Origin: an uncultured Pirellulaceae bacterium
GTDB taxonomy: Bacteria; Planctomycetota; Planctomycetia; Pirellulales; Pirellulaceae
DNA length: 32,000 nt
Direction: 5' to 3'
Assembly (NCBI GenBank): GCA_964434955.1
Contig: CAYSXI010000016.1
Coordinates: 14,808 to 46,807 of the forward strand
Shown: positions 3,356-28,420 of the stretch, one piece after another
Numbering within the stretch: the first letter of the stretch is position 1
Layout: each line of letters opens with the position of its first letter
Translations under genes and position numbers: made by a program
The notes under the pieces: generated by a model
The model's database searches: none
What the model saw: only the letters and a program-made list of their open reading frames with translations
What the model was told of the DNA's origin: nothing

Positions 3356-3697
3356 TCAAAGATCGGCATCCATCCGTTTTTGCCGTCGTTCCTCGTAGCG
3401 TTCCAATGCAAGAGCGTAGCGTCTGACCCGTTGGTGTACAAACAGTCCGTAACCATTCGCGATGAAGAACAAGGGAATCGAGGCAAGCAGGAATATTGAT
3501 TTTTCAAAGAACAGGCCGTAAGTCAACAAAGACACGGCGAGGGTCGTTCCGATTCCCGAAGCAAGCCAGGCGATTTCTCCTCGCGGCTCATGACGACTGC
3601 CGTTTTGCCCTTCGATCATGTAAGCCTTGCGTTCGACTTCCCATTCGTCGTCGAGCTGTTTCAAATCCGCAATCAGTTTTGTATCAACGTTCATCAT
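3356..3697 (-). CDS. Small hypothetical membrane protein with two predicted TM helices
   Basis: Hydrophobic stretches 'IAWLASGIGTTLAVSLLTYGLFF' and 'IFLLASIPLFFIANGYGLFV'. The ATG at 3697-3695 overlaps the kinase stop as ATGA. The longest ORF would instead start at 3742. No family recognised. Confidence 0.5.
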   Translation of the reverse strand: MMNVDTKLIADLKQLDDEWEVERKAYMIEGQNGSRHEPRGEIAWLASGIGTTLAVSLLTYGLFFEKSIFLLASIPLFFIANGYGLFVHQRVRRYALALERYEERRQKRMDADL

Positions 3698-6600
3698 TCT
3701 GGCCTTTCTGATTTTCGGGCCTTGATGGCCTCCAAGCTCCAAACGCGACAGGAGTGAATCAGTCGAGAGCTTCCTGAAGCAAGCCAGCGGGAATCATGGC
3801 TAAACTGCAGGTCATTGATGGGGCGGCGATGTCCTTGGAGCGTGTAACGCTTCTCACGACTCTCGAGTTCAAATACCTCGATCGCGAATTTGAGCTGCGA
3901 ACCGGTCGAAGCCGCAACGTAGTGGCCGTCACGCGAAAAGCAGGCCGTCCTTCCTCCCGAACCCATCTTGAGAATCGGCTGGTAGCCATTCCGCAGGTCG
4001 AATACCGTGGTACCCCGAGCTGATACGCTGGCAAGCAGGTAGCGATCGTCGCGAGAAAACTCAATCTTGCTCAGAACTGGTTTTCGCCAGTCGGTTGAAC
4101 TCAAGTCCAACGCATGTTTTGTTTCGCCGGTTGCGGCGTCGAAAAGAACGACGGTTCCATTGGTGTAACCGGCCGCGACCGTCTGGCCATCATTGGAAAC
4201 GCCAACACTGCTACAAATTGTTTCGTTTGGCCCCAGTTCATCTTGGCCTGGGAATTTCATCGCTTTTCGTGCACCTAGTTGGCCATCGGACGCGATATCA
4301 AAATAAATCATCCCGCCGCGATCGCAGGCGTAAATCCGGTTGCGATTTGGATCAAAAAGAACATTCCAGAATTCTGGAATCGTCGAGTCAAGATTCTTCA
4401 GGTTGGAAATACGTTCGGAAACATCGGCGATCTCGCCGTCCAACTGCACGTGTCCCGTGTCGGTTGGTTTTAGAAACTGAGCGCGTTCACAACTTAAGTC
4501 AAAAAGCAGAAACCTGGGAATCGAGAATGCATTTGACTCGACCGATTCGTTGATACGGATTTGAACTAGACGAGATTCCTGGTCCGACCGAGTTCCTTCG
4601 CAGACCGCCCAAAGATTGGTGCCATTGGTCGCGAACTCGACTTTTTTCGTAGCGCCGGAGGTTGGAATCACCGCGTGGGGATAGGCGTTTTTGTAGTCAA
4701 AAAATTTGATCTTATCACCGGTTACCGCAATCAATGTTTTGGATTCATCATCGAAAAACAGGTCAACCAAAGGCCCGCCCAAATTGATGTCCAGGCACAT
4801 TTGTTGGCCATTCGAATCCCAAAAACGGAGGTCACCGCGATCGGTAAAGCTATAAATTCGATTGGGCGACGGCGTGGAGCGCGTAAGGGCTGTGTGATTA
4901 TGAGCGACGCCGTCGGATAACAATTTTCCCGTGTGGATATCGACTTGGGCAATCGAACGATCCGAGTGAGCCAGTAAAATTCTTGCCCGCTTCGGCAGAA
5001 AACAGATCGACTGTGGGTAGTCGAAATTTGTTTCAAAAACTTTCTCAACGGATGGATAGTTGAAAAGGACAAGGCGGGAAGTGTCAGTAATTGCCAGCTG
5101 CTTCCCGTCGTCGCTTAACTTGAAATCCGTCAACGGAGACGAGGAACGAAACAGGATTTCTTCTTCGGTTTTCTGAGCGAAGTTCCAGGATACCAAGGTT
5201 GAGTTCGCGGTTGCGCGTTCGGCGATTAACAGATGCGGTTCGGTGGCAGGAAACGCCAAATGAGCAATGGGCCATTGGCCTGTTCGTTTTGCAACTTGCC
5301 GTCCGGACGGATCGTGAATGATTATCGTGCCTTGATGATCATGAACGGCGATTTGTTTGCCATCGGAACGTACCACAATTCCTGCAATCTTCGGAATCGA
5401 GTCAAATTCGCTTGTCTGGATTCGGGAGGTGATATCAAGACATCGAATTTTCGAACCAACGGCGATGTAGATCTTCTGATTCGATGGCGAAAATGCGCAA
5501 CAGGATACGCGCCCGGATCCAACCTCAACCGAGTCGACACCGTGCTTTGTGATGCTGTACACCAAGTCGTGTTCCAGGTCGCGATAGGATAGCGGGCTCG
5601 TTTCGAGAATCTCCATCGCGGAGATGGGTAGTCCTTTGAGCGATAAATTGAAAGCCGCGGAAACCTGTAAGGCATAATTGGTGCGCCGCGCTCGAGAGAG
5701 AAGTGTTTCGACTTTTCTCTTTTGACGTTTCAACCGACCTTCACTTTCGGCCAGTTGTTTCGCTTCCTGTTTCCAGCGAGATTCATTGGATTTTGCAATC
5801 GCCGCATTGCCCGAAGAGCGAAACGCGAAAAAAGTTGTGCCGATGAGCCCGATTAGCAAACTTGCGGCAAGCGCTATCGACAAGGTGCCAATACGTGGAT
5901 TCCGCTGAAACCACTTTTGCAACTGTTCATGCCAAGTAGGTGTGCGGGCCGAAATGGTTTCGCCATTTAAAAAACGTTGCAGGTCTTCGGCCAGATGCTG
6001 GGCGGTTTGATACCGGGCGTCCGGCTTTTTTTCGAGACATTTCAAGCAGATGGCTTTGAGGTCTTTCGGGATGTTTGACGCGGCGGCAGTCCAGGAAACG
6101 GGTTCCGTTTCGATTGCCATCAATGTCAGGATCGGATTGTCTTTTCGAAACGGCGGTTGCCCCGTTAGCAACTCAAAGAGAATTGAGCCCAACGAGTAAA
6201 TGTCCGAGCGCTCATCGGAGATTGAAGAATCTCCTTTCGCCTGCTCGGGAGACATGTAAGCGGGTGTGCCCAAAATATCGCCCGTGTTCGTCAGGGTCGG
6301 ATTGTGATCGGAAAACTTTGCCAAGCCAAAATCGGCGATACAGATTCGTGAAACGAACTCTTGTTCGTTGACGTCCGAAATCGGCTTTGAAAACAAAAGG
6401 TTTGCCGGCTTCAAGTCGCGATGCACGACCCCTCGAGAATGCGCGTATTGGATTGCTTCGGCGAGCACGCGCGCAATCTTCGCCGCCAAATTTGGATTGG
6501 GCGGTTGAGTGGGCGAAGCAAGCCACTCGGAAAGTGACGGTCCTTCGGCAAATCCGTAGGCCAGAAAAACTTCGGATTCGGTCGCCGAGCTCTGATAGAG

Positions 6601-7086
6601 AGGGATAATGTTTGGATGCGAAAGCATGGCCGCTGCTTTTGCTTCGCGCTGAAAACGTTTTCGTTGCCCTGCGTCATTTAAATGCAGGCCATGAGGAACC
6701 TTGATCGCGACGTGACGTTCCAGCTGTTTGTCGAATCCAAGAAAAACCTGCCCATAGCCCCCCTGCCCCAGCAGTCGATCGATCCGGTAATCACCAATGT
6801 ATCTGGCGTTCTCCGGTTCGGCCGGCGGGAAGCTTTTAAGTGTCGACGCTTCACGTTGATTGGCTTCAGCCCGCGTCTTGTTCGTTGCCTGTGTCGTCTC
6901 CAGCCCCTTCGGCCGAGCGGCATCCAGGAGGTTCAGGCAACTCAGGCGACGATTGAGTTCCAGCATTTCCTGATCGGACAGGCGTTCAATTTCAGTTGAG
7001 TCGATTGAACTGGAATGCGAGTCAAGCAGAAGGTCAAAATCCTCGACCAGCTTTTCGACATTCACATTGTTTTCAGGAGGACTCAT
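3694..7086 (-). CDS. Ser/Thr protein kinase with one TM helix and a large C-terminal WD40/beta-propeller region
   Basis: 1130-aa ORF. Hanks motifs: 'LGQGGYGQVF', 'VAIKV', 'HRDLKPANLL', 'DFGLAK' and 'GTPAYMSPEQ'. TM segment 'IGTLSIALAASLLIGLIGTTFFAF'. The C-terminus has WD-like repeats, for example 'GHRRPINDLQFSHDSRWLASGS...RVWSLE'. The start overlaps the sigma gene by 14 nt. Confidence 0.95.
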   Translation of the reverse strand: MSPPENNVNVEKLVEDFDLLLDSHSSSIDSTEIERLSDQEMLELNRRLSCLNLLDAARPKGLETTQATNKTRAEANQREASTLKSFPPAEPENARYIGDYRIDRLLGQGGYGQVFLGFDKQLERHVAIKVPHGLHLNDAGQRKRFQREAKAAAMLSHPNIIPLYQSSATESEVFLAYGFAEGPSLSEWLASPTQPPNPNLAAKIARVLAEAIQYAHSRGVVHRDLKPANLLFSKPISDVNEQEFVSRICIADFGLAKFSDHNPTLTNTGDILGTPAYMSPEQAKGDSSISDERSDIYSLGSILFELLTGQPPFRKDNPILTLMAIETEPVSWTAAASNIPKDLKAICLKCLEKKPDARYQTAQHLAEDLQRFLNGETISARTPTWHEQLQKWFQRNPRIGTLSIALAASLLIGLIGTTFFAFRSSGNAAIAKSNESRWKQEAKQLAESEGRLKRQKRKVETLLSRARRTNYALQVSAAFNLSLKGLPISAMEILETSPLSYRDLEHDLVYSITKHGVDSVEVGSGRVSCCAFSPSNQKIYIAVGSKIRCLDITSRIQTSEFDSIPKIAGIVVRSDGKQIAVHDHQGTIIIHDPSGRQVAKRTGQWPIAHLAFPATEPHLLIAERATANSTLVSWNFAQKTEEEILFRSSSPLTDFKLSDDGKQLAITDTSRLVLFNYPSVEKVFETNFDYPQSICFLPKRARILLAHSDRSIAQVDIHTGKLLSDGVAHNHTALTRSTPSPNRIYSFTDRGDLRFWDSNGQQMCLDINLGGPLVDLFFDDESKTLIAVTGDKIKFFDYKNAYPHAVIPTSGATKKVEFATNGTNLWAVCEGTRSDQESRLVQIRINESVESNAFSIPRFLLFDLSCERAQFLKPTDTGHVQLDGEIADVSERISNLKNLDSTIPEFWNVLFDPNRNRIYACDRGGMIYFDIASDGQLGARKAMKFPGQDELGPNETICSSVGVSNDGQTVAAGYTNGTVVLFDAATGETKHALDLSSTDWRKPVLSKIEFSRDDRYLLASVSARGTTVFDLRNGYQPILKMGSGGRTACFSRDGHYVAASTGSQLKFAIEVFELESREKRYTLQGHRRPINDLQFSHDSRWLASGSSRLIHSCRVWSLEAIKARKSERPE

Positions 7087-7690
7087 GGCTTCTCATCAAT
7101 TGATCAAGCTTAACAATTGCTCTTTGCCAGGTTTTTTTGACGGCTTCTTCATTCTTGTTCAAGTGCTCGGCAATCTTCGCAAAAGGCCAACGCTCCCAGT
7201 TTCGTAACTTGATCACTTGCTGATCGAATTCGGGCAACTTGAGGACCGCTTGGCGAACCAATTGAATTTGTTCCTCGCGAAGCGCCGTCGATTGAGGCGT
7301 CAAATCTGCGTTTTCAGGATCGCCGACTCCATGATTCTTTGAATCACCATCAATGCTTCGTTCTCGAGCGGCATCCCGGGATTGCCTTTTGAACGCACGA
7401 CGCGCCTGGTTGATTTCGTTGATCAAGATCGTACGCAGCCAACCTCGAAATTCCTTGCTGTTGTTTCCACGAAAATCGTCCAGTGCCGCCGCCGCTTTGG
7501 CAAACGCCATTTGAACCGCGTCGGACTCGCCAAACTTCTGTCGCAAGCCCGCATCCAATTCGTAATTGGAAATCAGCATCAAGTACTCTTCGTGCTGTTT
7601 GAAGAGCTCGTTGGTTGACTTTTTGCAACCGTCCTTTGCGGCTTTCAACAAAAGCGTGACATCGCGGTCTGCGGGGTCTCGTTCGTTCAA
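7073..7690 (-). CDS. ECF-type RNA polymerase sigma-70 factor
   Basis: 205-aa ORF. Sigma-2-like 'FRGWLRTILINEINQARR' and sigma-4 HTH 'LPEFDQQVIKLRNWERWPFAKIAEHLNKNEEAVKKTWQRAIVKL'. It apparently starts at TTG (7690), and the first in-frame ATG would truncate region 2. It is coupled to the kinase. Confidence 0.85.
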   Translation of the reverse strand: MNERDPADRDVTLLLKAAKDGCKKSTNELFKQHEEYLMLISNYELDAGLRQKFGESDAVQMAFAKAAAALDDFRGNNSKEFRGWLRTILINEINQARRAFKRQSRDAARERSIDGDSKNHGVGDPENADLTPQSTALREEQIQLVRQAVLKLPEFDQQVIKLRNWERWPFAKIAEHLNKNEEAVKKTWQRAIVKLDQLMRSHESS

Positions 7691-7867: not shown

Positions 7868-8698
7868 ATGAAGAAAAAAATGAAGTTGATGTATGCACTG
7901 GCAGCTTTGATCGTTCTGACCGGATGCGGCACGACCGCGACCGTGGATCCTGGAAGTCCTGCCGAACCAAATCCAGAACCGGCCGCCATGTCGAGCCAGC
8001 CATCGGAGAACCAGTTGGAGGGGTTTGTCGGAGTTTGGATAGGAAAATATTCCGGGATTGATGACCAGATCACGATTCAGAAAACCAATGTGAGAGGTGA
8101 GTATCAAGTCGATCTGCACCAAAAATTCTCCAATCCCGACTCGGTCATCGCGCATAGCAACGCAGAAAATCAACTGGAAATCCGCAACCAAAACCTGGGC
8201 GGAGCTGCCGGGACGGCAACGCTAACATTCAAAGACGGGAAATTGATGCTCGAACAAAAGGGACTTGGTATGACCGTACGAGGGACTTACACGCGAGCAA
8301 GTGAATCGAAAGGCCACGCAAAGGATTCGATAGGCCAAGCGAATACAAATAACCATGCATCCGAAACCTCCCAACAAAAGGCGGTGACATCAACCAGCCT
8401 TCCCGACGATATTCCCGTGTTCCCAGAATCCGAAGAAACCATGAGCTTCGGCAAAAGAATTAAGAGCGTTCGTTTCAAGACCTTCAAATCGGCAAAAGAT
8501 ATTCACGATTTTTACATCAACCAGTTGACGCAAAATGACTGGGAAATTGGCAACGACGGAACCCTGACGATTCAAGCGTCGAAGGGAATCGCGAAAACCA
8601 AGGGTTTCAGGAAGCGGACCGTTACGATTTCAGTTTTGACACCGCGAGATCCCCGGGCGATTCAAGCCACCGAGTTTGTCATTCAATACAACGACTAA
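7868..8698 (+). CDS. Hypothetical lipoprotein
   Basis: Signal peptide plus lipobox 'MKKKMKLMYALAALIVLTGC'. AAGGAGA lies 8 nt upstream of the ATG. No family recognised. Confidence 0.7.
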   Translation: MKKKMKLMYALAALIVLTGCGTTATVDPGSPAEPNPEPAAMSSQPSENQLEGFVGVWIGKYSGIDDQITIQKTNVRGEYQVDLHQKFSNPDSVIAHSNAENQLEIRNQNLGGAAGTATLTFKDGKLMLEQKGLGMTVRGTYTRASESKGHAKDSIGQANTNNHASETSQQKAVTSTSLPDDIPVFPESEETMSFGKRIKSVRFKTFKSAKDIHDFYINQLTQNDWEIGNDGTLTIQASKGIAKTKGFRKRTVTISVLTPRDPRAIQATEFVIQYND

Positions 8699-8735: not shown

Positions 8736-9125
8736 CTATTTATCGCTTCGTCCCGGATACAAAGGAAAATCCGAGATGATGATTTCGTTTACCCGACGGG
8801 TGTCGTCCAGTTTCAGCAAAACATATTTGCCTTCGCAGCGGTAAAGCATCTCTCCCGACACCCAGTTCTTATGCTCGCCATATTTCATTGACTTGGCATG
8901 CAGCGGATAAGAGAAAAGGGATTTTGCGGGATACCCGAAATTTGCTTCGATCTCTTCGAGTGTCATTCCCTTACGGTAGGAGTCAAGCTTGTTCGCCGTG
9001 GTATTCTCGGGCGGGTTCGCGTTTTTTCCACGGGAAGGCGACTCGGCATCACACCCGATCAGGGAGAAAGAGAAAAGCAGGCTCAGCAGAAAAACAAATC
9101 GACAAGGTAAGTTTGGCAGATGCAT
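8736..9125 (-). CDS. Small hypothetical lipoprotein with a BamE/SmpA-OmlA-like motif
   Basis: Lipobox 'LLFSFSLIGC'. 'GMTLEEIEANFGYP' resembles the SmpA/OmlA signature. This family assignment is tentative. Confidence 0.6.
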   Translation of the reverse strand: MHLPNLPCRFVFLLSLLFSFSLIGCDAESPSRGKNANPPENTTANKLDSYRKGMTLEEIEANFGYPAKSLFSYPLHAKSMKYGEHKNWVSGEMLYRCEGKYVLLKLDDTRRVNEIIISDFPLYPGRSDK

Positions 9126-9652
9126 CGTCGTTACCTGGCAAAAAAGTTAAAAACGGTTTCCAGGATTCCAGATTTCCTCCTCCACCGACGGGGACAATTT
9201 TTTTACCAAAGCAGGATTTGTTTTGAATGAACGGGAGTGAAAACAAAGGGAAGGGAGTCGCTCAAGGACATCTTCTGAGGTAGGAAAACCGGGAGCTGGA
9301 TTCCAAGTTCCTCAGAAAGCAGACGGGCTGTTAAACCTTTCGGATTGCTTAACTTTTGCCGCGATTGACAGTTTTGCCGGGAACGAAGTCAACGAATTCA
9401 AGGGCTGTCAAACTTTGACGCCGGTAACGAATATGCCCGGCTGGTATCACACTTTTGGGTGAAAAACCGTTCTTGAGATCAGCAATATCTCCGTTTGGAT
9501 CGATCATTTTTTCTATACGACGCTCAGGTTCGGCATGATCGAACCAATGCGAACGAACCGAAGCATCGTTTCAACCCCACTCACCCGTGGTCCTGTCCGA
9601 CGGAACAACGATGGAAACTGCATACACAAATCGCGATCAACGCATTTTGTTC

Positions 9653-10396
9653 ATGAAGCTTGGAGTTTTTTGCATTGCATGTTCCCTGCTACTGGCCGCG
9701 CTCGGCTGCAACTCCATAAGGACGACCGTACTCGACCGAAGTGAAGACGATCGATTGCAGAAGAATCGACCCACGACAAGCCTCAAGGGAATTCCCGTCA
9801 TGCTCAAGGTTCCGACGCATATGGAAATCACCGTTTACGAAAGAAGCTTCTTCTATCAGACGAAGCAAAGCAATCGCCTCGTTGCCGTTGATTGCAACGA
9901 GATGCCGACGAGGTTCGTCAAAACCAACGTGGCAAAAACCGAAAAAATGTTTTTGGTTGACCCCAAGCGGGCTGCTGCCGGAATCACCGAATATGGATTC
10001 AAGTTCCAGGGTGGCGAAGAAGGGAAATCGGCTGCGGGTCACGGATATCTTTCGCAAGCCAATTACAAAGTCCAAGACGAGACGTTGACTCAAGCCGCCA
10101 GTCTTGTGAACTCGGTTGCCGCGGCTCTGCTCACATCGCCGGGAACGCCCGGTGCCGATCCAAAAAGTGTCATGGAGGCCGAGAATGGTGATGCGGTACC
10201 CGTGCATGAGATTGATCGAGTGGTCGCCTTCTGCCGGTTCGATATCAACTCACCAACGTACGACGAAGACGTTCGACAGTTTCTCAACCAGTATTTGAAT
10301 CACTGCCAAAGCTGCCAGAACCTTCCGCAGTACGGTACACCCAAGGCAGACTGCAAGCCCAAGGCAAATGCCGATTCAAAAAGTAAGAAAGGATGA
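9653..10396 (+). CDS. Hypothetical lipoprotein, paralog A of a tandem pair
   Basis: 'MKLGVFCIACSLLLAALGC' is a signal peptide plus lipobox. The track ORF starts at 9587, but the ATG at 9653 gives a canonical signal. It shares 'G[IV]PV.LKVPTH.E[IV]T' and 'RVVAF.RFDI' blocks with the next ORF. Confidence 0.7.
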   Translation: MKLGVFCIACSLLLAALGCNSIRTTVLDRSEDDRLQKNRPTTSLKGIPVMLKVPTHMEITVYERSFFYQTKQSNRLVAVDCNEMPTRFVKTNVAKTEKMFLVDPKRAAAGITEYGFKFQGGEEGKSAAGHGYLSQANYKVQDETLTQAASLVNSVAAALLTSPGTPGADPKSVMEAENGDAVPVHEIDRVVAFCRFDINSPTYDEDVRQFLNQYLNHCQSCQNLPQYGTPKADCKPKANADSKSKKG

Positions 10397-11223
10397 TTCA
10401 GGTGAAACTCTTTCGACTTCAATTGGTAATGGCTTTGCTGGTCCTGGTGAGCTGCGGTTGTACCACGTTCCGATCAACAATCATGGAGCGTGACGAGCAT
10501 GATCGGATCTATCCTCAATCAAGACCGCGAACGTCAGCCGGTGTTCCGGTCAAACTCAAGGTGCCGACACACCTGGAAGTAACCATCAAGGAAAAGTACC
10601 AGATCATCGATGGTGTGGTAAAAGATGGCCATGTCGTTCCACCGGAAATCGTAAACCTTGGTTCGAATGGGCGACGGTTTCTGAACGTTGAAACCGCAAT
10701 TGGATATACCGACAAGGTATTCACCGTGGATTTCCCAAGACCTTTTTCCGGAGATCTGACGCTTGGGAGTGCTTCGTCCGGCGGCTTGCAGTTCGACGGA
10801 GAACAGTTCTTTAGCCAGGTGCATGGGACGATTGATGATCAAACGATCGAGGACATCAACTCCGTAATCAAAAGCGAGTTGCCCACCCTGCAAAACACGC
10901 TTGCCAAAGCGGCTCCCAAGTCGGTGGAGGCCGAATTGGATGCCGCAAAAGTTGGTTCCAACATCAAACTGGGTGAACGAGTCGTCGCGTTTCAACGATT
11001 TGATATTTCTGAATGCGATTGGGAAGCAAAAGTACAGAACTTCATCAATTTCCATCTAAACTGCAATCGAGCCTGTCCCGATCGATCGTTTGACGAAGCT
11101 TGCGCGGTCGGCTGCCAGGGATCCGCCAAACAAGTTACCGAGGTGATGCAGGCCAACGCACCCCAAGGCGTGATTGAACCGATGATTCCAGAGGGGCTCA
11201 AAGAGAAGGCAATTTCAAAGTAG
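10393..11223 (+). CDS. Hypothetical lipoprotein, paralog B of a tandem pair
   Basis: 'LQLVMALLVLVSCGC' lipobox. The ATG overlaps the paralog A stop (ATGA at 10393-10396). An alternative GTG start lies at 10402. The C-terminus is Cys-rich: 'LNCNRACPDRSFDEACAVGC'. Confidence 0.7.
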   Translation: MIQVKLFRLQLVMALLVLVSCGCTTFRSTIMERDEHDRIYPQSRPRTSAGVPVKLKVPTHLEVTIKEKYQIIDGVVKDGHVVPPEIVNLGSNGRRFLNVETAIGYTDKVFTVDFPRPFSGDLTLGSASSGGLQFDGEQFFSQVHGTIDDQTIEDINSVIKSELPTLQNTLAKAAPKSVEAELDAAKVGSNIKLGERVVAFQRFDISECDWEAKVQNFINFHLNCNRACPDRSFDEACAVGCQGSAKQVTEVMQANAPQGVIEPMIPEGLKEKAISK

Positions 11224-11280
11224 GCGTTTGGCATCGACGCTCCGATCACGGCGAGACTCGCCTCCAACTCAGGACTAAGC

Positions 11281-12846
11281 ATGGCAAAAAAGAAAAAATC
11301 GGCCGCAGTGCGAGGGAACGAGTCCCGATCAACCAAATCGAAAGCGACAAAGAAGCGCGCAACGAAGAAGTCTACTTCAAAAAAGGAAGCTCCATCCCGG
11401 AAGAAATCTTCGCGGAAGAAGTCATCGCGCAAAAAAACCAGCAAGAAGAAAACCAGCAAGAAGAAAGTCGTCACAAAGAAGAAAAAGGTGGTGACCAAGA
11501 AGCCGAGTCGCAAACGAACCGCCAAGAAAAAAGTTACCAAAAGAGTGGCGAGAAAGAAAACGACTTCCACTGCCAAAAAGAAGCTCAGCCTGGCCCATCA
11601 GCTTTTTTATGGTGTCGACGAAAATGGCAAACCGACCGGCAAGAAAATCGATGAAGTCGCCGTGGTTGCCGAAAAGGCGAAAGGCGGCGTCATCCTTTCG
11701 TCCGACGGCATCCGAAACGAATTTCGGCGCCGCCGATCCGAGTTGGAACCTCAGCGCAAAAAAGCTCAGGCAGTGCTCGATGAGATTCTGATTCCGCGGA
11801 TTCAAAAAGGGATGTACGGGCCCATCTCGAGCTACTCGATCGGGTTCCGAGTGAAACACGGCAAACCCCTTTCGCCGCTCAAATACGTCATTCAAGTCGG
11901 CGTGCCCGAGAAGTATACCGAGGAGATGCTCAAGCGGAAGAAGATCCGACGGCTTCCGAAAAAAATTGAGGGCGTCGAAATCAAAGTCATCGAATCCCAG
12001 CCATCGATGACCCGCGACGCATTTGAAGCGAGCGCAACGGAAGATTCGGAGTTTTCGGCCATCGTCATGCCGAGTGGGAAAACGAAACTGACGGACTTGG
12101 TTGACATCACTGAGTCCTCCATCGAGATCTCTGACACCGACCTTTGGGGCGGTCTGCCGGCAGCCGATACCACGGAGCTCAAGAACTGGGGGACCTTTGG
12201 CGTCTCGTTTAAAAAATCAAATCAACATTTCGCGCTAGTCAATCAACACTTTGCGAAACAAGTTGGTGTGACGATGGCGCAGCCCGCTTCGAAACCCGGT
12301 GGCAATCTGACGGGTTGGGAAATTGGCAAGGTCGAAAAGGTATTCATCGGTCAGCAAACCCAGGAACGCGGATACGTTGACGCGGCATTGATCAAGCTTC
12401 AGCTCGATGGCAACCGCAAGTCGGTTCACCGAATCCTGAGTTTCGAATCGGAGGAGTTACTGTTCGCTTCGAGGCGACTTAACGATTCGGACGATATGTT
12501 CGCCAAAGTGTTTAAATACGGAGCCCGTTCGAAAGAAAAACTCGAAGCGGACATCGTCAATACGGCGAAGACCATCAGCATTTCGGGCGGGGATGCGGAT
12601 AAAGTTATCGCGATCGAGGGCACGTCTTCCGGAACGCGATTCATCAAGGGTGGCGACAGCGGAAGCGCCGTGGTCGCCCCGGTCCTGGTCAACGGGACGC
12701 CAAGGTTGCTGGTCGTTGGATTGTTCTTCGCCGGGGACAAACAGAACAAGGCACTTGCATACGCCTGTCATTTTCAGGACGTGATTGACGCGCTCACCCT
12801 CGACCTCCCCGATCGCTTGCTTTGCGACAATTGGACTTACGAATAA
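11281..12846 (+). CDS. Chymotrypsin-fold (S1-like) serine peptidase with a ~100-aa Lys/Arg-rich N-terminal tail
   Basis: 521-aa ORF. Triad-like motifs in the canonical order are 'GTFGVSF..ALVNQHF' (His), 'YVDAALIKL' (Asp) and 'KGGDSGSAVV' (Ser). Residues 1-100 are about half K/R. I see no signal peptide or TM segment. Confidence 0.8.
   Translation: MAKKKKSAAVRGNESRSTKSKATKKRATKKSTSKKEAPSRKKSSRKKSSRKKTSKKKTSKKKVVTKKKKVVTKKPSRKRTAKKKVTKRVARKKTTSTAKKKLSLAHQLFYGVDENGKPTGKKIDEVAVVAEKAKGGVILSSDGIRNEFRRRRSELEPQRKKAQAVLDEILIPRIQKGMYGPISSYSIGFRVKHGKPLSPLKYVIQVGVPEKYTEEMLKRKKIRRLPKKIEGVEIKVIESQPSMTRDAFEASATEDSEFSAIVMPSGKTKLTDLVDITESSIEISDTDLWGGLPAADTTELKNWGTFGVSFKKSNQHFALVNQHFAKQVGVTMAQPASKPGGNLTGWEIGKVEKVFIGQQTQERGYVDAALIKLQLDGNRKSVHRILSFESEELLFASRRLNDSDDMFAKVFKYGARSKEKLEADIVNTAKTISISGGDADKVIAIEGTSSGTRFIKGGDSGSAVVAPVLVNGTPRLLVVGLFFAGDKQNKALAYACHFQDVIDALTLDLPDRLLCDNWTYE
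11435..11464 (+). repeat. Perfect 15-bp tandem duplication inside the Lys-rich coding tract
   Basis: aaaaccagcaagaag occurs twice, encoding KTSKK KTSKK. It sits within a wider degenerate AAG/AAA-rich tract (about 11284-11585). Confidence 0.8.
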
Positions 12847-12860
12847 CGGATTGCCTGACG

Positions 12861-13727
12861 ATGGAATGGCCCATGATTCGAATCGGATTTGTAACCCAAA
12901 GCGGCCTGCTGTTGCTGTTGTTTTCTTTGGTAGGATGCAACGCCATCAAGACCCGGCTTCAAGGTTTGGACGTCTCAACCGCGAATCATCAGAACATACC
13001 TTCGGACGTGGCGGATGCGAAATCCAAAATCGGAACGGTTCGTGTTCAGCGCTGGCTTGGCAACGCACAGGCAATCGAAATTCGAAAAGATGATCGGCAG
13101 CTTCAGTCAGTTTTGTCGAAGGTGTTGACGGAAGCGGACAACTCCGACCGTCGGCGACTAAAGCAACTGGTCGGTGACTACAACCTGAAAGCGAAAAATG
13201 CAAAAGCGCCAGGTTTGCGGCTGAAGGCTTCCGAGCTGGATGACAACGTCGTTGTAATCCGACGAGGGGGCGAATACTGGTACCTGATTCAGCCCTGGAT
13301 GTCGCGCCCCGAACTTGCCAACTTGCCTTTGAAAAACGGGGACTTCGTGACGACGATTCCGCTTTCACGACTTCCCTTTCAAAGCCGCTTGCCCGAGAAG
13401 AAAACAGCCGAAGTGCGAATGGCCGGGCCTTGGAGCAAGCAGCAAGGGCTTGTCGAGCTTGAAAGAAGGAAGATTCCCTTTTCTCAATTGATTCAGGCGA
13501 CCGCGGCCAAATCGCTGTTCAAGGAAAACGCATCGGTTTGCATTGTGACACGCGTGAAGGATGGAAAGGTTCGCCACCTGGTCATGCCACTCGATGTCGA
13601 GAACGGAATCTTTTCTCAATGGTTCCTCAATGCTCATCACCGTTTCTACAACGCAACACTTGGGCTTGCAGACGGGGATCTTGTCCGAGCAACCGAGCTC
13701 TCTGTCTTTTTAGCATTGTTAAAATGA
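12861..13727 (+). CDS. Hypothetical lipoprotein with two beta-grasp (SLBB-like) looking segments
   Basis: 'MEWPMIRIGFVTQSGLLLLLFSLVGC' lipobox. The track ORF starts at 12822 inside the previous gene, and the ATG at 12861 is more plausible. 'LPLKNGDFVTTIP' and 'LGLADGDLVRATE' resemble SLBB 'L..GD.v.v' motifs, but this match is tentative. Confidence 0.65.
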   Translation: MEWPMIRIGFVTQSGLLLLLFSLVGCNAIKTRLQGLDVSTANHQNIPSDVADAKSKIGTVRVQRWLGNAQAIEIRKDDRQLQSVLSKVLTEADNSDRRRLKQLVGDYNLKAKNAKAPGLRLKASELDDNVVVIRRGGEYWYLIQPWMSRPELANLPLKNGDFVTTIPLSRLPFQSRLPEKKTAEVRMAGPWSKQQGLVELERRKIPFSQLIQATAAKSLFKENASVCIVTRVKDGKVRHLVMPLDVENGIFSQWFLNAHHRFYNATLGLADGDLVRATELSVFLALLK

Positions 13728-13763
13728 CGTTGGCGCGTGGTAGTAGCTTTTGGGAGCAAGGGT

Positions 13764-14234
13764 ATGCGTATCACTTCTGAAATTGCCAACCAATTACGGC
13801 AGGTTCATCGTGGGGGAAATTGGACCGCCGTCAATTTGAAGGATACGTTGGAGGCGGTTCGTTGGCAGGAGGCAACCCAATCGATCGAGAACGGCCATTC
13901 GATTGCGGGGCTGGTTTTTCATATGAACTACTTTGTGGCAGCCGTGTTAGGCGTACTGAGGAACGGGGTCCTCGATGCCTCGGATAAACTCAGTTTTGAC
14001 TGTCCGCCTATTGTCAGCGAAGAACAATGGCAAGCGTTGATCCTCAAAACTTTGAGCGACGCTGACGAGCTTGCCGGCATGATCGAAGGACTTCCCGAAG
14101 CCAAGTTGTCAGAGACATTCGCTGACGAGAAATACGGAAGTTACCTTCGGAATCTGCAAGGCGTCATCGAGCACTGCCACTACCATCTTGGCCAAATCAC
14201 GATGATTCGGAAGTTGGCTCGATCGTTGGATTGA
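13764..14234 (+). CDS. DinB-fold (DinB_2/DUF1572-like) protein
   Basis: 'GLVFHMNYF' and the C-terminal 'IEHCHYHLGQITMIRK' match His-rich DinB four-helix-bundle motifs. The ATG at 13764 is preceded by GGAGCAAGGGT. Confidence 0.72.
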   Translation: MRITSEIANQLRQVHRGGNWTAVNLKDTLEAVRWQEATQSIENGHSIAGLVFHMNYFVAAVLGVLRNGVLDASDKLSFDCPPIVSEEQWQALILKTLSDADELAGMIEGLPEAKLSETFADEKYGSYLRNLQGVIEHCHYHLGQITMIRKLARSLD

Positions 14235-14522
14235 GCGACGACTTCGAGCTGGAACCTCTCAATACGGGCCGGTAATCTGCCCGATTCCGACCGGTTCATT
14301 CAGCCTTCGTTCTGCTTTAAGGTCAAAATCCCTCTCCCATGGGCCGCTTCTGGACCCTTGTTTTTAAGGGTTTCTCGATTTTGTGTCCGGTTGAAGTCGG
14401 AATTTGCAATCTCTTGTTGACGAGACATTGGTCGAGTCAGGGAAGGCAAAGAGGAAAAGGAATTTCATCGGTCGGTGTTTCCCAAACCAAAAACAGCCAA
14501 CAAAAAATACAAGGGAAGCAAG

Positions 14523-16628
14523 ATGAAAAACACCACTCTCCGAAAACGATTGGCGGCCACTCTGGTAGCCAGCGTTCTGATGCTAGGAATTGGAACAGAT
14601 CTTGGTCAAGCGGCCAGCCCTCAGTTTCCAGCCGAGCTAACCGGCAAAGTTCAAAAACGGGAGCAAGAGCGCGAGGAACTCAAGCCGAAGCAGGTCTATC
14701 AGAAGATGTTGAAAGGAACGGTATGGATTCACCAATTTGCCAATCAAATGGCCGGCCACGGTACCGGCTGGATTGTCGATGCCGACAAAGGCCTGGTGAT
14801 GACCAATCATCACGTTGTTGATCGTGGCGAAGACGTCATCATGTTCTTGCCAAAATTTGATCAGGGAAAACTGGTCACCGACCCCGAAGAATACACCAAG
14901 TACACCCGTCCCATCAAAGGAAAAGTCATCGACAGTGATCGAACGCGAGATTTGGCCCTGATCCGAATCGAAGGCAAGTTACCAAGTTCCGCGGAATCGC
15001 TTCCGATGGCAAAGGAAAGTGCCAGTCCCGCAGACATGCTTCATGTCGTCGGTGGTTTGCCAAGCGGTTCCAATGGTGTGTTCAGTTACACCAACGGCTA
15101 CGTCCGGGAAGTTTCGCATGGCAAAGGAGTCAATGGCGGGCGAGACATCTGGTTGATTCGCCACAATATCGCAACCAATCGTGGCAACAGCGGCGGTGCA
15201 CTCGTCAACAGTCACGGAGAAGTTGTGGGCGTCCACAACATGGGCATGTATGACGTAGCCATCAAAGGAACGTCAGGAGGGATCGATCTAAAGGAAGTCA
15301 AATCGTTTATCAAAGAGGTCGAGTCTCTTTACCCAGCCACGACTGCCAAGGCAGCTTACGAGGCAGGAAAACGACATTATCGAGCCGGTCGCTACGACTC
15401 GGCCATCGACTATTTCTCTTCGGCGATCCGCAAGGATTCGAAGCACGCCGAGGCTTACCGGATGCGAGGCTGGAGTTTTACGGTCAAGAAAGATCTTGAT
15501 TCCGCCAAGCGAGACTTCACTTCCGCGATCGAGCACGATTCGACCAATTGGAATGCCTTTTACGGTCGTGGAAAAGTCCTCGGAATGCAAGGAAATTCGA
15601 AAGCCGCAATCGCGGACCAAAACGAAGCAATTCGCCTGAACCCAAAAGCAAAATTCGCATACCTTCAAAGAGGTGACTTGTATCGGGCAAATCGTCAGTA
15701 CGAAAACGCCGTCAAGGATTATTCCCGAGCAATCGAGACGGACAAGTCATATATCAGCGCAATCAACCAGCGAGGACGAACGTACCTGAACCTGGGCCTG
15801 TACACCAAAGCCCTTGCGGATTTCGAGGAAGCTTATCGCCTCCGGCCACATCCGATCTACTGCAACAATGTTGCCGTCGCTTTGGAGCGAATGGGCAAAA
15901 AACAAGAAGCGGTTCAGCTGTACCAAAGAGCGACCCAGATGGATCCCAACTACACTTTGCCACGGAAAAATCTGGCCCTGGTTTACATGGAAGCAAAAAA
16001 TTATGACGCTGCCGTTTATCACCTGAACTTTGCGATTCAGTCAGATCCAAAGTCAAGCCAGTTCTTCTACCTGCGTGCCAAAAGTTTCGATGCACTCAAG
16101 CAACTCAAGTTGGCTTTGACGGACATCAACATGGCAATCCAACTTTATAAGAAGGACGCGGACTACTTTGCGGTTCGATCAGCGATTCTCAGCGATCTCG
16201 GATACGAAGCCGACGCTGTTAAAGACATTCGCTATGCCGCCAAGCTAAATCCAAAAAAGTATGGTAGCTACTCAAATGCCAAACACATCACGGCAAAACC
16301 ACGAGTTGAGTCGCCGAAGAAACAAAAGTCGCAGTCGGTTGGCGGTACCTGGAGCTTCAAACAGACCGTTCACGGTGTTCGCTACGATTGCCTGATCGCA
16401 TTCAACGCCACGCATTTCGAATACCACCTGACTTGGGTTGATGCGGCAGGCAAGCCAGGCCAGGTCCGACGCAAAGGCACTTATGAAATCACCGACGGTG
16501 GATGGCAAGTGGTACTGCGAAGCAGTGGTGGCCACGCAACCAAGACCGATATTGGATTCAAGGATGGGCTCCTGGTCATTCAGATTCCTGAAATGAACCA
16601 GTTCTTTTCTTTCAAGCGAGTGAAATAG
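14523..16628 (+). CDS. Secreted trypsin-like serine peptidase (Trypsin_2/S1C-like) fused to TPR repeats and a C-terminal domain
   Basis: Signal peptide 'MKNTTLRKRLAATLVASVLMLGIGTDLGQA'. Triad motifs 'GTGWIV..LVMTNHHVV', 'DLALIRI' and 'TNRGNSGGALV'. At least 8 TPR-like units follow, for example 'AEAYRMRGWSF...', 'WNAFYGRGKV...' and 'AKFAYLQRGDLY...'. The track ORF starts at 14475. Confidence 0.85.
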   Translation: MKNTTLRKRLAATLVASVLMLGIGTDLGQAASPQFPAELTGKVQKREQEREELKPKQVYQKMLKGTVWIHQFANQMAGHGTGWIVDADKGLVMTNHHVVDRGEDVIMFLPKFDQGKLVTDPEEYTKYTRPIKGKVIDSDRTRDLALIRIEGKLPSSAESLPMAKESASPADMLHVVGGLPSGSNGVFSYTNGYVREVSHGKGVNGGRDIWLIRHNIATNRGNSGGALVNSHGEVVGVHNMGMYDVAIKGTSGGIDLKEVKSFIKEVESLYPATTAKAAYEAGKRHYRAGRYDSAIDYFSSAIRKDSKHAEAYRMRGWSFTVKKDLDSAKRDFTSAIEHDSTNWNAFYGRGKVLGMQGNSKAAIADQNEAIRLNPKAKFAYLQRGDLYRANRQYENAVKDYSRAIETDKSYISAINQRGRTYLNLGLYTKALADFEEAYRLRPHPIYCNNVAVALERMGKKQEAVQLYQRATQMDPNYTLPRKNLALVYMEAKNYDAAVYHLNFAIQSDPKSSQFFYLRAKSFDALKQLKLALTDINMAIQLYKKDADYFAVRSAILSDLGYEADAVKDIRYAAKLNPKKYGSYSNAKHITAKPRVESPKKQKSQSVGGTWSFKQTVHGVRYDCLIAFNATHFEYHLTWVDAAGKPGQVRRKGTYEITDGGWQVVLRSSGGHATKTDIGFKDGLLVIQIPEMNQFFSFKRVK

Positions 16629-19596: not shown

Positions 19597-21015
19597 TTAT
19601 CCAAGACTCTTGAACGCCGCCAAAACCTTCTCTCGGCTTGCCGAATAGTCGATGACGAAAGAAGGGTAATCGGCGTTATGCTGCTTGATCGCCGCGGTAA
19701 GTTTTTTTGCATCATGGAGCGCGGCACTGGGGACGGGCTCCAACTCCGGACACATTTTTTTGATGAAACTTCCTTCCGGATCAAATCGTTTGCTCTGACT
19801 GAAAGGATTGAAAATTCGAAAATAGGGTACCGCGTCGGTTCCTGTTGATGCCGACCATTGCCACCCACCATTGTTTGCCGCGAGGTCTCCATCGATCAGG
19901 TTTTGCATGAAGTAGCGTTCTCCCCAACGCCAGTCAATCAGAAGGTTCTTGCTGAGAAACATTGCGGTGACCATGCGAAGTCGATTGTGCATCCAGCCGG
20001 TACGGTTGAGTTGCCGCATTCCAGCGTCCACCAAAGGAAAGCCGGTTCTTCCTTCTTTCCATGCGTCGAATAAACCCTGGTCGTGGCTCCAATTGATTCC
20101 GTCCGTTGCAAGTTTGAACGGACGGTGCATGCAAACCCGAGGACAGTGAACCATCACCTGATGATAAAAGTCGCGCCAGCAGAGTTCCGAGATCCAAACC
20201 GCGGCCCCGTTGTCGCCGCCAATCTTACCCCGGTTTGCGGTAATCGCTGCCGACAAACATTGCCGAGGCGATATCACGCCAGCTGCCAGGTAGGGCGACA
20301 AAAGGCTCGTCCCGTTTTCACTGGGAATGTCACGTGCTGTCCCGTACGCGGCAATGGCATTGGTGAAATTCTTGATGCGCTTCTGTGCCTCGGATTCACC
20401 GGCCGGCCATAGGTCCTTTCGGTACGTGGACAAGTCGAAACCGGGAACACGATCGGGAACTTGCGAAGATTCCGTTCCCTCTGGACGTTTCTGTTTCCTC
20501 GGCCGAGGCAGCACCTCGATCAAACCGTTGACCACCGGCTCCCAGGATCGCCGATAGGGCGTAAAGACCGAATAGAAACCGCCTGTCTTTGTCTTTACCC
20601 GGTCGGCAGGCACCAGGATGCGATCGTCAAAGGCGTGAATCGCCAAGGATTTTTTCGCGGCGGCTTCTTCTACCGCTTGATCTCTTCGACGCTCGTTGAC
20701 TTCGTATTCGGCATTGAAAAAAATGGCCGACGAATCTGTCTCGCTGGCAAACTTGACAAGCTGGCTTGGGATCTTGGAATAGTCGTCGCAACGGACAACT
20801 CGAAGTGGGATGCCCAGAGATTCAAGGTCTTCGGCGAGAAGGAGTAGATTTTCAATCCAGAAGGCGACTTTGCAAGCTGCTTCATCATGAGCTTGCCATT
20901 GCTTCGGTGTAATGAAATAAATTGCGAAGGTCGAACCGGGACGCTTCGAAGCATGGTGCAGGGCCATGTTGTCGCGTGTCCTCAAATCGCGACGAAACCA
21001 AACAATTGTGTTCAT
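19597..21015 (-). CDS. phrB: Deoxyribodipyrimidine (CPD) photolyase, class I
   Basis: 'IVWFRRDLRTRDNMAL' at the N-terminus. FAD-binding block 'TGFPLVDAGMRQLNRTGWMHNRLRMVTAMFLSKNLLIDWRWGERYFMQNLIDGDLAANNGGWQW'. Confidence 0.92.
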   Translation of the reverse strand: MNTIVWFRRDLRTRDNMALHHASKRPGSTFAIYFITPKQWQAHDEAACKVAFWIENLLLLAEDLESLGIPLRVVRCDDYSKIPSQLVKFASETDSSAIFFNAEYEVNERRRDQAVEEAAAKKSLAIHAFDDRILVPADRVKTKTGGFYSVFTPYRRSWEPVVNGLIEVLPRPRKQKRPEGTESSQVPDRVPGFDLSTYRKDLWPAGESEAQKRIKNFTNAIAAYGTARDIPSENGTSLLSPYLAAGVISPRQCLSAAITANRGKIGGDNGAAVWISELCWRDFYHQVMVHCPRVCMHRPFKLATDGINWSHDQGLFDAWKEGRTGFPLVDAGMRQLNRTGWMHNRLRMVTAMFLSKNLLIDWRWGERYFMQNLIDGDLAANNGGWQWSASTGTDAVPYFRIFNPFSQSKRFDPEGSFIKKMCPELEPVPSAALHDAKKLTAAIKQHNADYPSFVIDYSASREKVLAAFKSLG

Positions 21016-21125: not shown

Positions 21126-22631
21126 ATGGTAGATCTGCTCATTTTTCCCCACCAGCTGTTTGAATACCATCCGGGGTTTCAGCAATCGATCGACCGGGTT
21201 TTGTTGATTGAAGACAGCCTCTTTTTTGGTGACTCCCGATATCCACTCCGCTTTCACCTACAGAAACTCTGGTTTCACCGCGCGACCATGAAGCGCTATG
21301 AGCGTTTGGTTCGTGAGCGGGGTTATGCGGTTGAATATCTGGAGTTTCAGCCGGGCCGGGACCTGGTCGACACCCTGGTTTCGTTTTACGAAAGCCAAGA
21401 CCAGACCACCAGTTCCTTCGTCTACTGCGAGCCCGTCGATTTTGTCCTCGAAAAGCGACTCGAGCGATTGGAGTCCAAGCTCGATATCGAACCCGTGCGT
21501 TTGCCGACGCCTGGATTCATCAATCGGTCCGAAGAAAACGTCAAATATCGCGCCGGTCGGAAACGTTGGTTTATGGCCGATTTTTACAAATGGCAGCGCA
21601 AGCGTCTGGATATCTTGATGGAGGATGGGCAACCGGTTGGCGGCAAATGGAGCTTTGATGGAGACAATCGAAAGAAGGTGCCAAAGAACCGTTTGGATTC
21701 TGTTCCACAGTTGCCATCGATTGAGCGTGATTCGATCGATCACGAAGCCCGTGAATATGTTCAACGGCGATTTCCGGAGAACCCGGGGTCGCTTTCGAAT
21801 TTGATTTATCCAACCTCGCACTTGGATTCGGATTCGTGGCTTGCGAAGTTTCTCGAAGAACGCTTTGCGCTTTTCGGAGACTACGAGGATGCAATCGTCG
21901 CCAAAGAGTCTTTCCTTTGGCACAGTGTTCTAACGCCGATGCTGAATGTCGGGTTGGTGACGCCAAACCAAGTGCTGGATGCAACGCTTGAGTTTTCCCT
22001 ACGAGCCGATGTGCCAATCAATGCGCTCGAGGGATTCATCCGACAAGTCATTGGTTGGCGCGAGTTCATGCGCGCGACCTACCAGGATCTTGGAGTGGCC
22101 ATGCGGAATTCAAATCATTGGTCCCATTCGAGATCCATTCCGAGTTCGTTCTACGACGGCACGACCGGGATTGAGCCGGTCGATACGACGATCTCGCGCA
22201 TCATCGAGACCGGCTATTGCCATCACATCGAACGTTTAATGGTTCTGGGCGGATTCATGTTTCTTTGTGAATTCCATCCCAAGCAAATCTATCAATGGTT
22301 CATGGAAATGTTCATCGATAGTTACGACTGGGTGATGGTTCCCAATGTTTTTGCGATGAGTCAGCATGCGGACGGGGGGCTAATCACGACCAAGCCCTAC
22401 TTCTCAGGATCGGCCTACATCAAAAAAATGAGTCACTACTCGAAAGGTCCCTGGTGCGAAATCTGGGATGGGCTCTATTGGCGATGGATCGACAAGAATC
22501 TTGAAAGTCTTTCACACAACCCACGCTGGGCAATGATGTGTCGGATGGCCGAAAAGATGGACCCGGAGAAAATGGCCAAGCATAAGAAGGTTGCCAGCGC
22601 GTTTCTCAAGCGCGTTTCTCAAGACACTTGA
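21126..22631 (+). CDS. Cryptochrome/photolyase-family protein of the COG3046 (CryPro / FeS-BCP / bacterial 6-4 photolyase-related) type
   Basis: 501-aa ORF. The N-terminus 'LLIFPHQLFEYHP' is typical of COG3046. Also present are 'GFIRQVIGWREFMR', 'ETGYCHHIERLMVLGGF', 'FIDSYDWVMVPNVFAMSQHADGG' and 'KPYFSGSAYIKKMS'. Confidence 0.85.
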   Translation: MVDLLIFPHQLFEYHPGFQQSIDRVLLIEDSLFFGDSRYPLRFHLQKLWFHRATMKRYERLVRERGYAVEYLEFQPGRDLVDTLVSFYESQDQTTSSFVYCEPVDFVLEKRLERLESKLDIEPVRLPTPGFINRSEENVKYRAGRKRWFMADFYKWQRKRLDILMEDGQPVGGKWSFDGDNRKKVPKNRLDSVPQLPSIERDSIDHEAREYVQRRFPENPGSLSNLIYPTSHLDSDSWLAKFLEERFALFGDYEDAIVAKESFLWHSVLTPMLNVGLVTPNQVLDATLEFSLRADVPINALEGFIRQVIGWREFMRATYQDLGVAMRNSNHWSHSRSIPSSFYDGTTGIEPVDTTISRIIETGYCHHIERLMVLGGFMFLCEFHPKQIYQWFMEMFIDSYDWVMVPNVFAMSQHADGGLITTKPYFSGSAYIKKMSHYSKGPWCEIWDGLYWRWIDKNLESLSHNPRWAMMCRMAEKMDPEKMAKHKKVASAFLKRVSQDT

Positions 22632-26834: not shown

Positions 26835-26839
26835 TCGTT

Positions 26840-27124: not shown

Positions 27125-27130
27125 CTCGCG

Positions 27131-28420
<1,290 letters not shown>

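Follow-up and report, generated by a model that had tools for sequence, protein, structure and literature searches.

Rice NARROW LEAF 1 (NAL1) is an intracellular protease that forms a hexameric cage and degrades transcription regulators, and in its chain an N-terminal domain (residues 1-88) is followed by an ATP-binding domain (89-172) and then by a protease domain (184-458), whose catalytic triad is H234/D291/S385 (PMC12012508). Residues R120, R122, K123, K139, and D166 make the contacts with ATP and Mg (PMC12012508). Here we describe a predicted bacterial relative of this plant protease that is encoded between lipoprotein genes in a 32,000-nt stretch of DNA from an uncultured Pirellulaceae bacterium (assembly GCA_964434955.1, contig CAYSXI010000016.1, positions 14,808 to 46,807 of the forward strand), which is hereafter called the window. 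The protease gene (C) follows the genes for two paralogous lipoproteins (A and B) and precedes the gene for a third lipoprotein (D). This A/B-C-D order is kept in about 50 independent Planctomycetota loci, and its recurrence in dozens of independent loci is far beyond chance.

A preliminary description of the same DNA had placed five open reading frames (ORFs), A through E, on one strand. An ORF check of the window found all five on the plus strand at the coordinates given there, and likewise reproduced the ATGA overlap of the A stop with the B start (10393-10396) and the gaps of 57 nt between B and C, 14 nt between C and D, and 36 nt between D and E. The features are as follows.

9126-9652, no strand: upstream region, 527 nt of non-coding DNA shared with the divergent minus-strand lipoprotein gene 8736-9125
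9653-10396, plus strand: lipoprotein A, 247 amino acids (aa) from the ATG at 9653, lipobox Cys19
10393-11223, plus strand: lipoprotein B, 276 aa, lipobox Cys23
11281-11595, plus strand: C residues 1-105, a disordered lysine-rich (histone-H1-like) tail
11590-12135, plus strand: C residues about 104-285, N-terminal strands, a long helix, and the beta domain that matches the NAL1 ATP-binding domain
12136-12846, plus strand: C residues about 286-521, predicted chymotrypsin-fold serine protease domain
12247-12249, 12379-12381, and 12658-12660, plus strand: codons for the C catalytic residues His323, Asp367, and Ser460, respectively (codon check)
12861-13727, plus strand: lipoprotein D, 288 aa, lipobox Cys26, a divergent representative of a family that has two SLBB repeats
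13764-14234, plus strand: DinB-like gene E, 156 aa, which adjoins the cassette and is not a member of it

The start of A can be set at the GTG at 9587 (longest ORF), at the equivalent of 9611 (ENA gene call), or at the ATG at 9653, and the 521 aa of C take up the whole of ORF 11281-12846. The distance from E to the next gene is 288 nt, provided that this gene starts at the ENA-called position. A, B, C, and D probably form one operon, and the region 9126-9652 is presumed to be its promoter region. No ORF of at least 60 aa with coding support was found there, and promoter and terminator scans gave sites no more numerous than in shuffled controls. No sigma-70 consensus was found upstream of A, which is uninformative for this phylum, and Rfam recognized no family anywhere in the window.

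The family of C was reached through its relatives. Direct comparison of window C with Pfam and NCBIfam matched no model, Pfam Trypsin and Trypsin_2 gave no match at E<=1 (and one of 41 relatives at E=0.07), and a PDB sequence search with C alone returned nothing. An exhaustive HMMER search with residues 101-521 as the query recovered homologs in 116 cluster representatives at 50% identity, 71 of them below 1e-10, and 41 sequences were aligned. His323, Asp367, and Gly-Asp-Ser458-460 are invariant in all 41, and in window C the motifs NQH323, VD367AALI, and GDS460GS stand in the canonical order that the preliminary description had recognized. On these sequence grounds, C is predicted to be a conserved, active protease.

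When the C family profile was compared with PDB sequences, it matched rice NAL1 (E=4e-16) from NAL1 Gly114 through the protease domain, and the C triad H323/D367/S460 aligned with NAL1 H234, D291, and S385. The same relative was found with an AlphaFold2 model of C (mean predicted local distance difference test score, pLDDT, 82; predicted template-modeling score, pTM, 0.78), in which the first 100 residues are disordered (pLDDT <55) and residues 141-175 form a long helix. Foldseek ranked NAL1 chains first (E=9e-13, probability 1.0, about 390 columns), followed by alpha-lytic, Lysobacter L1/L5, and streptogrisin proteases of the S1E family (E about 1e-8 to 1e-7, TM-score about 0.7 on the target). 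This ranking agrees with the chymotrypsin fold that had been proposed for C at the outset. As judged by profile and predicted structure, C is a divergent bacterial relative of plant NAL1.

Comparison with the NAL1 structures (PDB 7Y77, 8HAS/8HAT/8HAU, and 8PME-8PN2) reveals a common domain order, in which a small beta domain precedes a chymotrypsin-fold protease with a His-Asp-Ser triad, and both C and NAL1 are without a signal peptide. The beta domain matching the NAL1 ATP-binding domain lies directly N-terminal to the C protease domain and carries FR190-V-K192, K211, and K235. In the profile alignment, R120, R122, and K139, which contact phosphate in NAL1, are paired with R190 (near-invariant), K192, and K211 (invariant) of C. 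Three of the four phosphate-contacting basic residues of NAL1 are thus kept; the fourth, K123, is H193 in C, and the Mg ligand D166 is K235. The two proteins nevertheless share only about 18% identity. In place of NAL1 residues 1-88, C has a histone-H1-like tail or a helix-hairpin-helix (HHH) domain together with a long helix. NAL1 must assemble into its hexamer (two stacked trimers) to be active, and the N-terminal domain through which it does so is not conserved in C; nor does the NAL1 region beyond residue 458 have a counterpart.

Other families come into view at a greater distance. Nal1_C (PF25819) is weakly matched by five of the 41 relatives (best E=1.7e-4), with no Pfam match for window C, and Peptidase_S64 weakly by four. 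The S1E proteases named above and yeast Ssy5 (Peptidase_S64) have the same protease fold as C; unlike C, they have signal peptides, pro-regions, and disulfides. Among PHROGs, phrog_20754 (“protease”) matches C residues 184-491 with E=6e-11, and therefore NAL1-like proteases also occur in phages.

The N-terminus of C is strongly basic, with 49 Lys/Arg and 2 Asp/Glu among the first 100 residues and a net charge of about +48 over residues 1-139. For the tails of the family as a whole, the median net charge is +19.5, and all 41 relatives begin basic, in the manner of M-[AKP]-K-K-K, a few of them after a short and probably mis-called leader. By hydropathy, a hydrophobic N-terminal segment or signal peptide is present in none of the 41, in agreement with the preliminary description, which had read the protease as signal-less. 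The Pfam domains at these N-termini are HHH_5 (eight of 41), the histone-H1-like HC2 (seven), and DUF4332 (six), and in some relatives an HHH domain replaces or joins the H1-like tail. Because H1-like repeats or HHH domains alternate among relatives, the N-terminus is expected to tether C to nucleic acid and not to a membrane or an envelope polymer. The C alignment has a single conserved Cys and no conserved disulfide pair. Owing to its DNA-binding-type N-termini, missing signal peptide, one conserved Cys, and conserved anion-binding residues, a cytoplasmic and nucleoid-associated location is the likeliest for C, which is probably a DNA-tethered protease.

Thus, the mismatch of compartments that the preliminary description had pointed out, exported lipoproteins alongside a protease without a signal, is a conserved property of the cassette and not an annotation artifact. 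The wording “envelope system” used there suits three of the four proteins (A, B, and D) but not C, which is most likely on the nucleoid. A comparable fusion is found in the capsid protein of alphaviruses, in which a polybasic nucleic-acid-binding arm is joined to a chymotrypsin-fold protease that oligomerizes into a shell. The likeness is an analogy: no specific relationship is detectable, NAL1 is the specific relative, and a scan of viral contigs for the A/B family gave no match.

The distribution of the cassette was established with a scan of the A/B alignment over one genome per GTDB species, which gave 33 GTDB genome loci, nearly all labeled Planctomycetota. Labels among them include Pirellulaceae, Planctomycetaceae, Schlesneria, Gimesia-like, Rubripirellula, Allorhodopirellula, Mariniblastus, and Isosphaeraceae; the few metagenome-assembled genomes (MAGs) with non-Planctomycetota labels are probably mis-binned. 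A word-index search with B had found 29 relatives, including proteins of Gimesia annotated as “Lipoprotein” or hypothetical. Word-index searches with C and D returned self-matches only, and it was the exhaustive HMMER search that surfaced the C family. The contigs of three B relatives (from Gimesia, from Mariniblastus, and a Logan contig) share a size pattern, comprising a lipoprotein of ~215-245 aa, one of ~255-300 aa, a polybasic protein of ~530-550 aa, and a lipoprotein of ~305-375 aa. The C and D equivalents in loci L004 and L005 (loci are numbered with the letter L) proved homologous by BLAST, and those of Gimesia (L003) by profile hidden Markov model (HMM) and jackhmmer searches. In Gimesia panareensis CP036277 (L003 5556-11683) the order is A-B-A-B-C-D, the A-B pair being tandemly duplicated, as it is in L042 and L043.

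How regularly C accompanies A/B was counted in 26 independent genome loci in which the last A/B gene is followed by 1300 nt or more. A polybasic protease is encoded next in 25 of the 26. In 24 the gene belongs to the C family by HMM, and in L022 it encodes a divergent polybasic protein with TAGHV, DVAFI, and GDSGG. The sole locus of this sample without C is L018. On this Actinomycetota-labeled MAG contig (L018/L050), two A/B genes are followed directly by a D-like protein with no protease, and an apparent integrase gene lies nearby; the taxon label is probably a binning error.

Immediately after C, a D gene was recognized by jackhmmer at 17 loci, and most remaining loci have more divergent lipoproteins or SLBB proteins in the D position. 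At L008, only a weak D-like signal-peptide protein (E=0.035) is found downstream from C, and in both L008 and L010 mutS then follows on the opposite strand. Another 26 metagenome loci show the A/B-C-D order wherever the contig is long enough, and a distant C homolog (E=4e-6) in another complete planctomycete genome likewise has A, B, and D as its neighbors. The order is retained at 25-45% protein identity through Pirellulales, Planctomycetales, and one Isosphaeraceae contig, and the spacing of C and D is tight or overlapping at many loci.

Clustering of all flanking ORFs gave no conserved neighbor besides A/B, C, and D, and gene E has no homolog at about 55 other cassette loci. The conserved unit is therefore A/B-C-D and not a block of five genes: the quartet that the preliminary description had proposed as a co-oriented unit recurs in order at dozens of loci, and the DinB-like gene that it had counted in falls away. 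Synteny beyond this genome, which had been named as a test, is conserved, and neither a cryptic signal peptide in the protease nor a confident match of the lipoproteins to unrelated families came to light. In the main lineage of the A/B tree, A-type and B-type proteins fall into clades of their own, in keeping with their place as first or second gene, and A-type orthologs occupy the first position at other loci. This correspondence of clade and position indicates an ancient duplication. The cassette appears to be vertically inherited within Planctomycetia.

Lipoproteins A and B are paralogs (35% identity by BLASTP, E=1e-28), as had been supposed from the outset. Signal peptides and lipoboxes were judged by N-terminal hydropathy and motif, and in each of the three exported proteins a hydrophobic N-terminus is followed by a lipobox Cys (AALGC19 in A, VSCGC23 in B, and SLVGC26 in D). 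This Cys is invariant in all 29 aligned A/B proteins, and directly after it comes an unusually conserved stretch, C-T-S-F-R-S-T..R...D. The invariant residues of the alignment are C23, G50, P52, P58, H60, E67, K108, D113, R116, and R202-F203-D204, and its motifs include GVPVKLKVPTH, RVVAFQRFDI, and a C-terminal C..PC pair.

Single-protein searches of A and B against Pfam, NCBIfam, PADLOC, and PHROGs found no match, and the A/B family has no relative among PDB sequences. Compared with Pfam, the A/B profile gave only a weak match to DUF6772 (four of 29, E about 1e-3), which was not reproduced on ten members. An AlphaFold2 model of B shows very long strands (51-72, 97-112, and 191-204) against which helices pack, together with a long beta-hairpin whose tip varies. 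Foldseek searches with this model against PDB and BFVD yielded nothing significant, and the top noise included secretin, alpha-hemolysin, and adeno-associated virus capsids. A relationship of A/B to D was considered and rejected, as the similarity detected by hhalign is confined to the signal peptide. We regard A/B as a new family of lipoproteins, for which no structural relative was detected.

In B, insertions cluster at the tip of the first hairpin, with none or one of ~50 aa in some proteins and a coiled coil of 110-130 aa in Schlesneria-like lineages. The B-type proteins with the 110-130-aa insertion are encoded at the following positions.

L020, 6989-8158
L026, 6902-8020
L055, 1526-2620
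L062, 1144-2325

Because insertions concentrate there, the tip appears to project into open space. Periplasmic adaptors of the AcrA type are lipid-anchored, beta-rich proteins with a coiled-coil hairpin of variable length. B resembles them by analogy, since it is lipid-anchored and beta-rich, with a variable-length coiled-coil hairpin inserted at the tip of a beta-hairpin. Unlike them, A/B has no sequence or fold match to HlyD/MFP families, and neither a pump nor an outer-membrane factor is encoded nearby.

Lipoprotein D belongs to a very divergent family (16% mean column identity) with two beta-grasp repeats, of which the first follows the pattern V.V.G.V...tL..al and the second v.v.R....P..l.....L..GD.v. 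Pfam SLBB or SLBB_2 is found in seven of 21 family members, and the D proteins of L038, L033, L027, and L032 exceed the 27-bit SLBB gathering cut-off. Window D itself has no direct SLBB match, nor any match in Pfam, NCBIfam, PADLOC, or PHROGs, and is joined to the others through the family profile (jackhmmer E=5e-11 to L038). Most D proteins have a lipobox Cys, and a few have a plain signal peptide. Judged by family membership, D is a diverged lipoprotein with tandem SLBB beta-grasp domains. This bears out the preliminary description in calling D a beta-grasp lipoprotein. Its further statement that none of the three lipoproteins has a known family holds for A and B, which match nothing in Pfam, NCBIfam, or PDB, and fails for D, whose family carries Pfam SLBB.

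We tentatively favor a reading, held at somewhat less than even confidence, in which the cassette is a two-compartment module composed of a lipid-anchored periplasmic A/B/D assembly and a nucleoid-tethered regulatory protease C. A, B, and D would be exported and lipid-anchored on the periplasm-facing leaflet of a membrane. A and B, whose order is fixed and whose translation is presumably coupled here, most likely form a hetero-oligomer built on the long beta-hairpin, the tip of which would tolerate lineage-specific coiled-coil projections of up to about 130 aa. D would contribute two SLBB domains. In Wza, GfcC, and ComEA, domains of this type build periplasmic rings or serve as ligand-binding modules. 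C would remain in the cytoplasm, tethered to DNA by its H1-like tail or, in some relatives, by HHH. By analogy with NAL1, its core probably oligomerizes into a cage, and the caged protease may cleave one or more nucleoid-bound proteins. In this manner, DNA-bound C could control, or be coupled to, the production or function of an envelope assembly of A, B, and D that is specific to Planctomycetia.

Several observations weigh against this proposal. Nothing visible connects cytoplasmic C with the exported lipoproteins, because no protein of the cassette spans a membrane. The regulatory link from C to A/B/D is a guess, and the cassette encodes no DNA-binding substrate or regulator. Binding of ATP by C is putative, since the Mg-coordinating Asp of NAL1 is Lys235 in C. 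The B model on which the hairpin assembly is drawn is of moderate confidence (pLDDT 70, with core strands near 90). Some lineages have a single A/B gene or an independent duplication, and in the Pirellula-like clade (L007, L008, L010, and L012) the arrangement is A-B-C, with D missing or very divergent.

A different view, possible but distinctly unlikely, unites all four proteins around a shared polyanion. In such a machine, A/B and D would serve an acidic glycan or DNA as a conduit or receptor in the periplasm or outer membrane, comparable to composite outer-membrane polysaccharide export (OPX) translocons or ComEA, and C would bind the polymer from the cytoplasm by means of its polybasic or HHH N-terminus and process an associated protein. 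The idea draws on the SLBB domains of D, which like Wza and other OPX proteins, GfcC, PslD, and ComEA is lipid-anchored with tandem SLBB-type repeats, and on the PDB matches of the D profile, which are only to Wza (E=0.002), PslD, and other polysaccharide-export proteins. These matches are marginal and cover the SLBB segment only. Strongly cationic C tails would suit a polyanion, and the variable-length projections of B resemble adaptor proteins.

ComEA consists of a membrane anchor, an SLBB domain directly after it, and HHH. The cassette holds two halves of this architecture, with the anchor and directly following SLBB in D and the HHH in eight of 41 C relatives. The halves, however, are not parts of one exported protein as in ComEA, because the HHH is in signal-less C relatives. 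The Poly_export (PES) domain of Wza is absent from every D-family member, and an outer-membrane-spanning C-terminal helix is not evident in window D. No polysaccharide or competence genes are conserved near the cassette (no glycosyltransferase, Wzx/Wzy/Wzc, ABC transporter, ComEC, or pilus genes), the cassette lacks an inner-membrane component, and a protease would have no obvious role in polymer transport.

Nonclassical secretion is improbable in our estimation. Here C would be a signal-less cargo for which A/B/D provides a dedicated translocon or surface anchor, and it would act outside the cytoplasm as a polycationic bacteriolytic or nutritional protease. There is precedent for the secretion of signal-less proteases, as with PopC of Myxococcus. 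Three exported proteins are strictly linked with one signal-less protein, the C and D genes are tightly spaced or overlapping at many loci, and the folds closest to C after that of NAL1 belong to secreted bacteriolytic proteases of the S1E type (Lysobacter L1/L5 and alpha-lytic protease). Against such export, the cassette has no inner-membrane transporter or ATPase, the interchangeable N-terminal modules of C are DNA-binding types (H1-like and HHH), C retains basic residues from the nucleotide site of NAL1, disulfide Cys pairs are not conserved, and NAL1 itself is intracellular (PMC12012508).

We grant a similarly low likelihood to the proposal that A/B and D constitute a Planctomycetia-specific envelope apparatus that physically handles C, either by exporting it or by acting with it on a polyanion (DNA or acidic glycan) that crosses the envelope. 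If this were true, bacterial NAL1-like proteases would belong to a new trans-envelope machine, and in the export variant the cassette would represent a new secretion route.

A conflict system is very improbable. Effector-immunity pairs and colicin operons combine a signal-less toxin with lipoprotein immunity or lysis proteins, and show a like mismatch of compartments. By this account, C would be a toxin delivered in the manner of type VI secretion effectors or released like a colicin, and the lipoproteins would be periplasmic immunity or release proteins; the distant relationship of C to the phage protease family phrog_20754 (E=6e-11) could be cited in its favor. The order of the cassette is fixed and conserved, though, and the clades of A mirror those of B, with an apparent grouping by taxon, which is the opposite of sporadic, fast-evolving loci. 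The lipoproteins are large and themselves well conserved, vgrG, PAAR, hcp, and mobility genes are not conserved nearby, PADLOC gave 0 matches for all five proteins, and A/B is absent from viral contigs. That the genes are mere co-inherited neighbors without a functional link is extremely improbable, as their order is kept at 25-45% identity across groups while every flanking gene differs, and the genes overlap or are closely spaced.

Planctomycetes have an unusual cell plan, with an enlarged periplasm, crateriform pits, and FtsZ-less budding, and much of their genomes is still annotated as hypothetical. A cassette of largely unannotated proteins that is kept across at least three families or orders is a testable candidate for a lineage-specific envelope function. 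On the protease side, NAL1 is an agronomically major enzyme whose cage architecture was solved in 2023-2025, and it now has a sizeable bacterial sister family of 116 clusters at 50% identity. This family, with its conserved genomic context and DNA-binding-type N-termini, may serve as a bacterial model for the fold, and the N-termini hint that tethering to DNA-bound substrates is ancestral.

Full-text literature searches found no paper on bacterial NAL1 homologs, planctomycete H1-like proteins, or the A-B-C-D cassette. No known system corresponds to the A/B family, which is new to databases, or to the combination of the four genes. C and D are new members of known fold families.

The genes around the cassette are of mixed character. 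Gene E matches DinB_2 with E=0.0018 and 19.1 bits, under the 24.8 cut-off, and was rejected as a cassette member because it has no homolog at any other locus. Immediately downstream, 14475-16628 (plus strand) encodes a 717-aa protein with a secreted Trypsin_2 domain and a long tetratricopeptide repeat array. This second trypsin-like protease is unrelated to C and is not conserved beside the cassette elsewhere. Two more predicted lipoproteins without a family are encoded upstream, at 7868-8698 (plus strand, 276 aa, LTGC) and 8736-9125 (minus strand, 129 aa, LIGC), and neither is conserved at other loci.

Farther upstream and divergent from the cassette lie genes for an extracytoplasmic function (ECF)-type sigma factor (7073-7690, minus strand) and a 1130-aa Ser/Thr kinase with WD40 repeats (3694-7086, minus strand). 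An ECF sigma factor and a kinase/nSTAND/FGE-sulfatase protein are also encoded upstream of the cassette in L004. Sigma-kinase pairs are common in planctomycetes, and their proximity to the cassette may be chance. With a kinase homolog near the cassette at four loci in all and the ECF sigma factor seen at L004, both were rejected as cassette members.

Two further gene pairs were noted in the window. A DNA photolyase gene (19597-21015, minus strand) is divergent from one for a photolyase-related DPRP protein (21126-22631, plus strand). At 25839-28420 (plus strand), the gene for a histidine-specific methyltransferase (Methyltransf_33, E=4e-106) precedes one for a protein that combines FGE-sulfatase and DinB_2, and this pair looks like EgtD/EgtB of ergothioneine biosynthesis.

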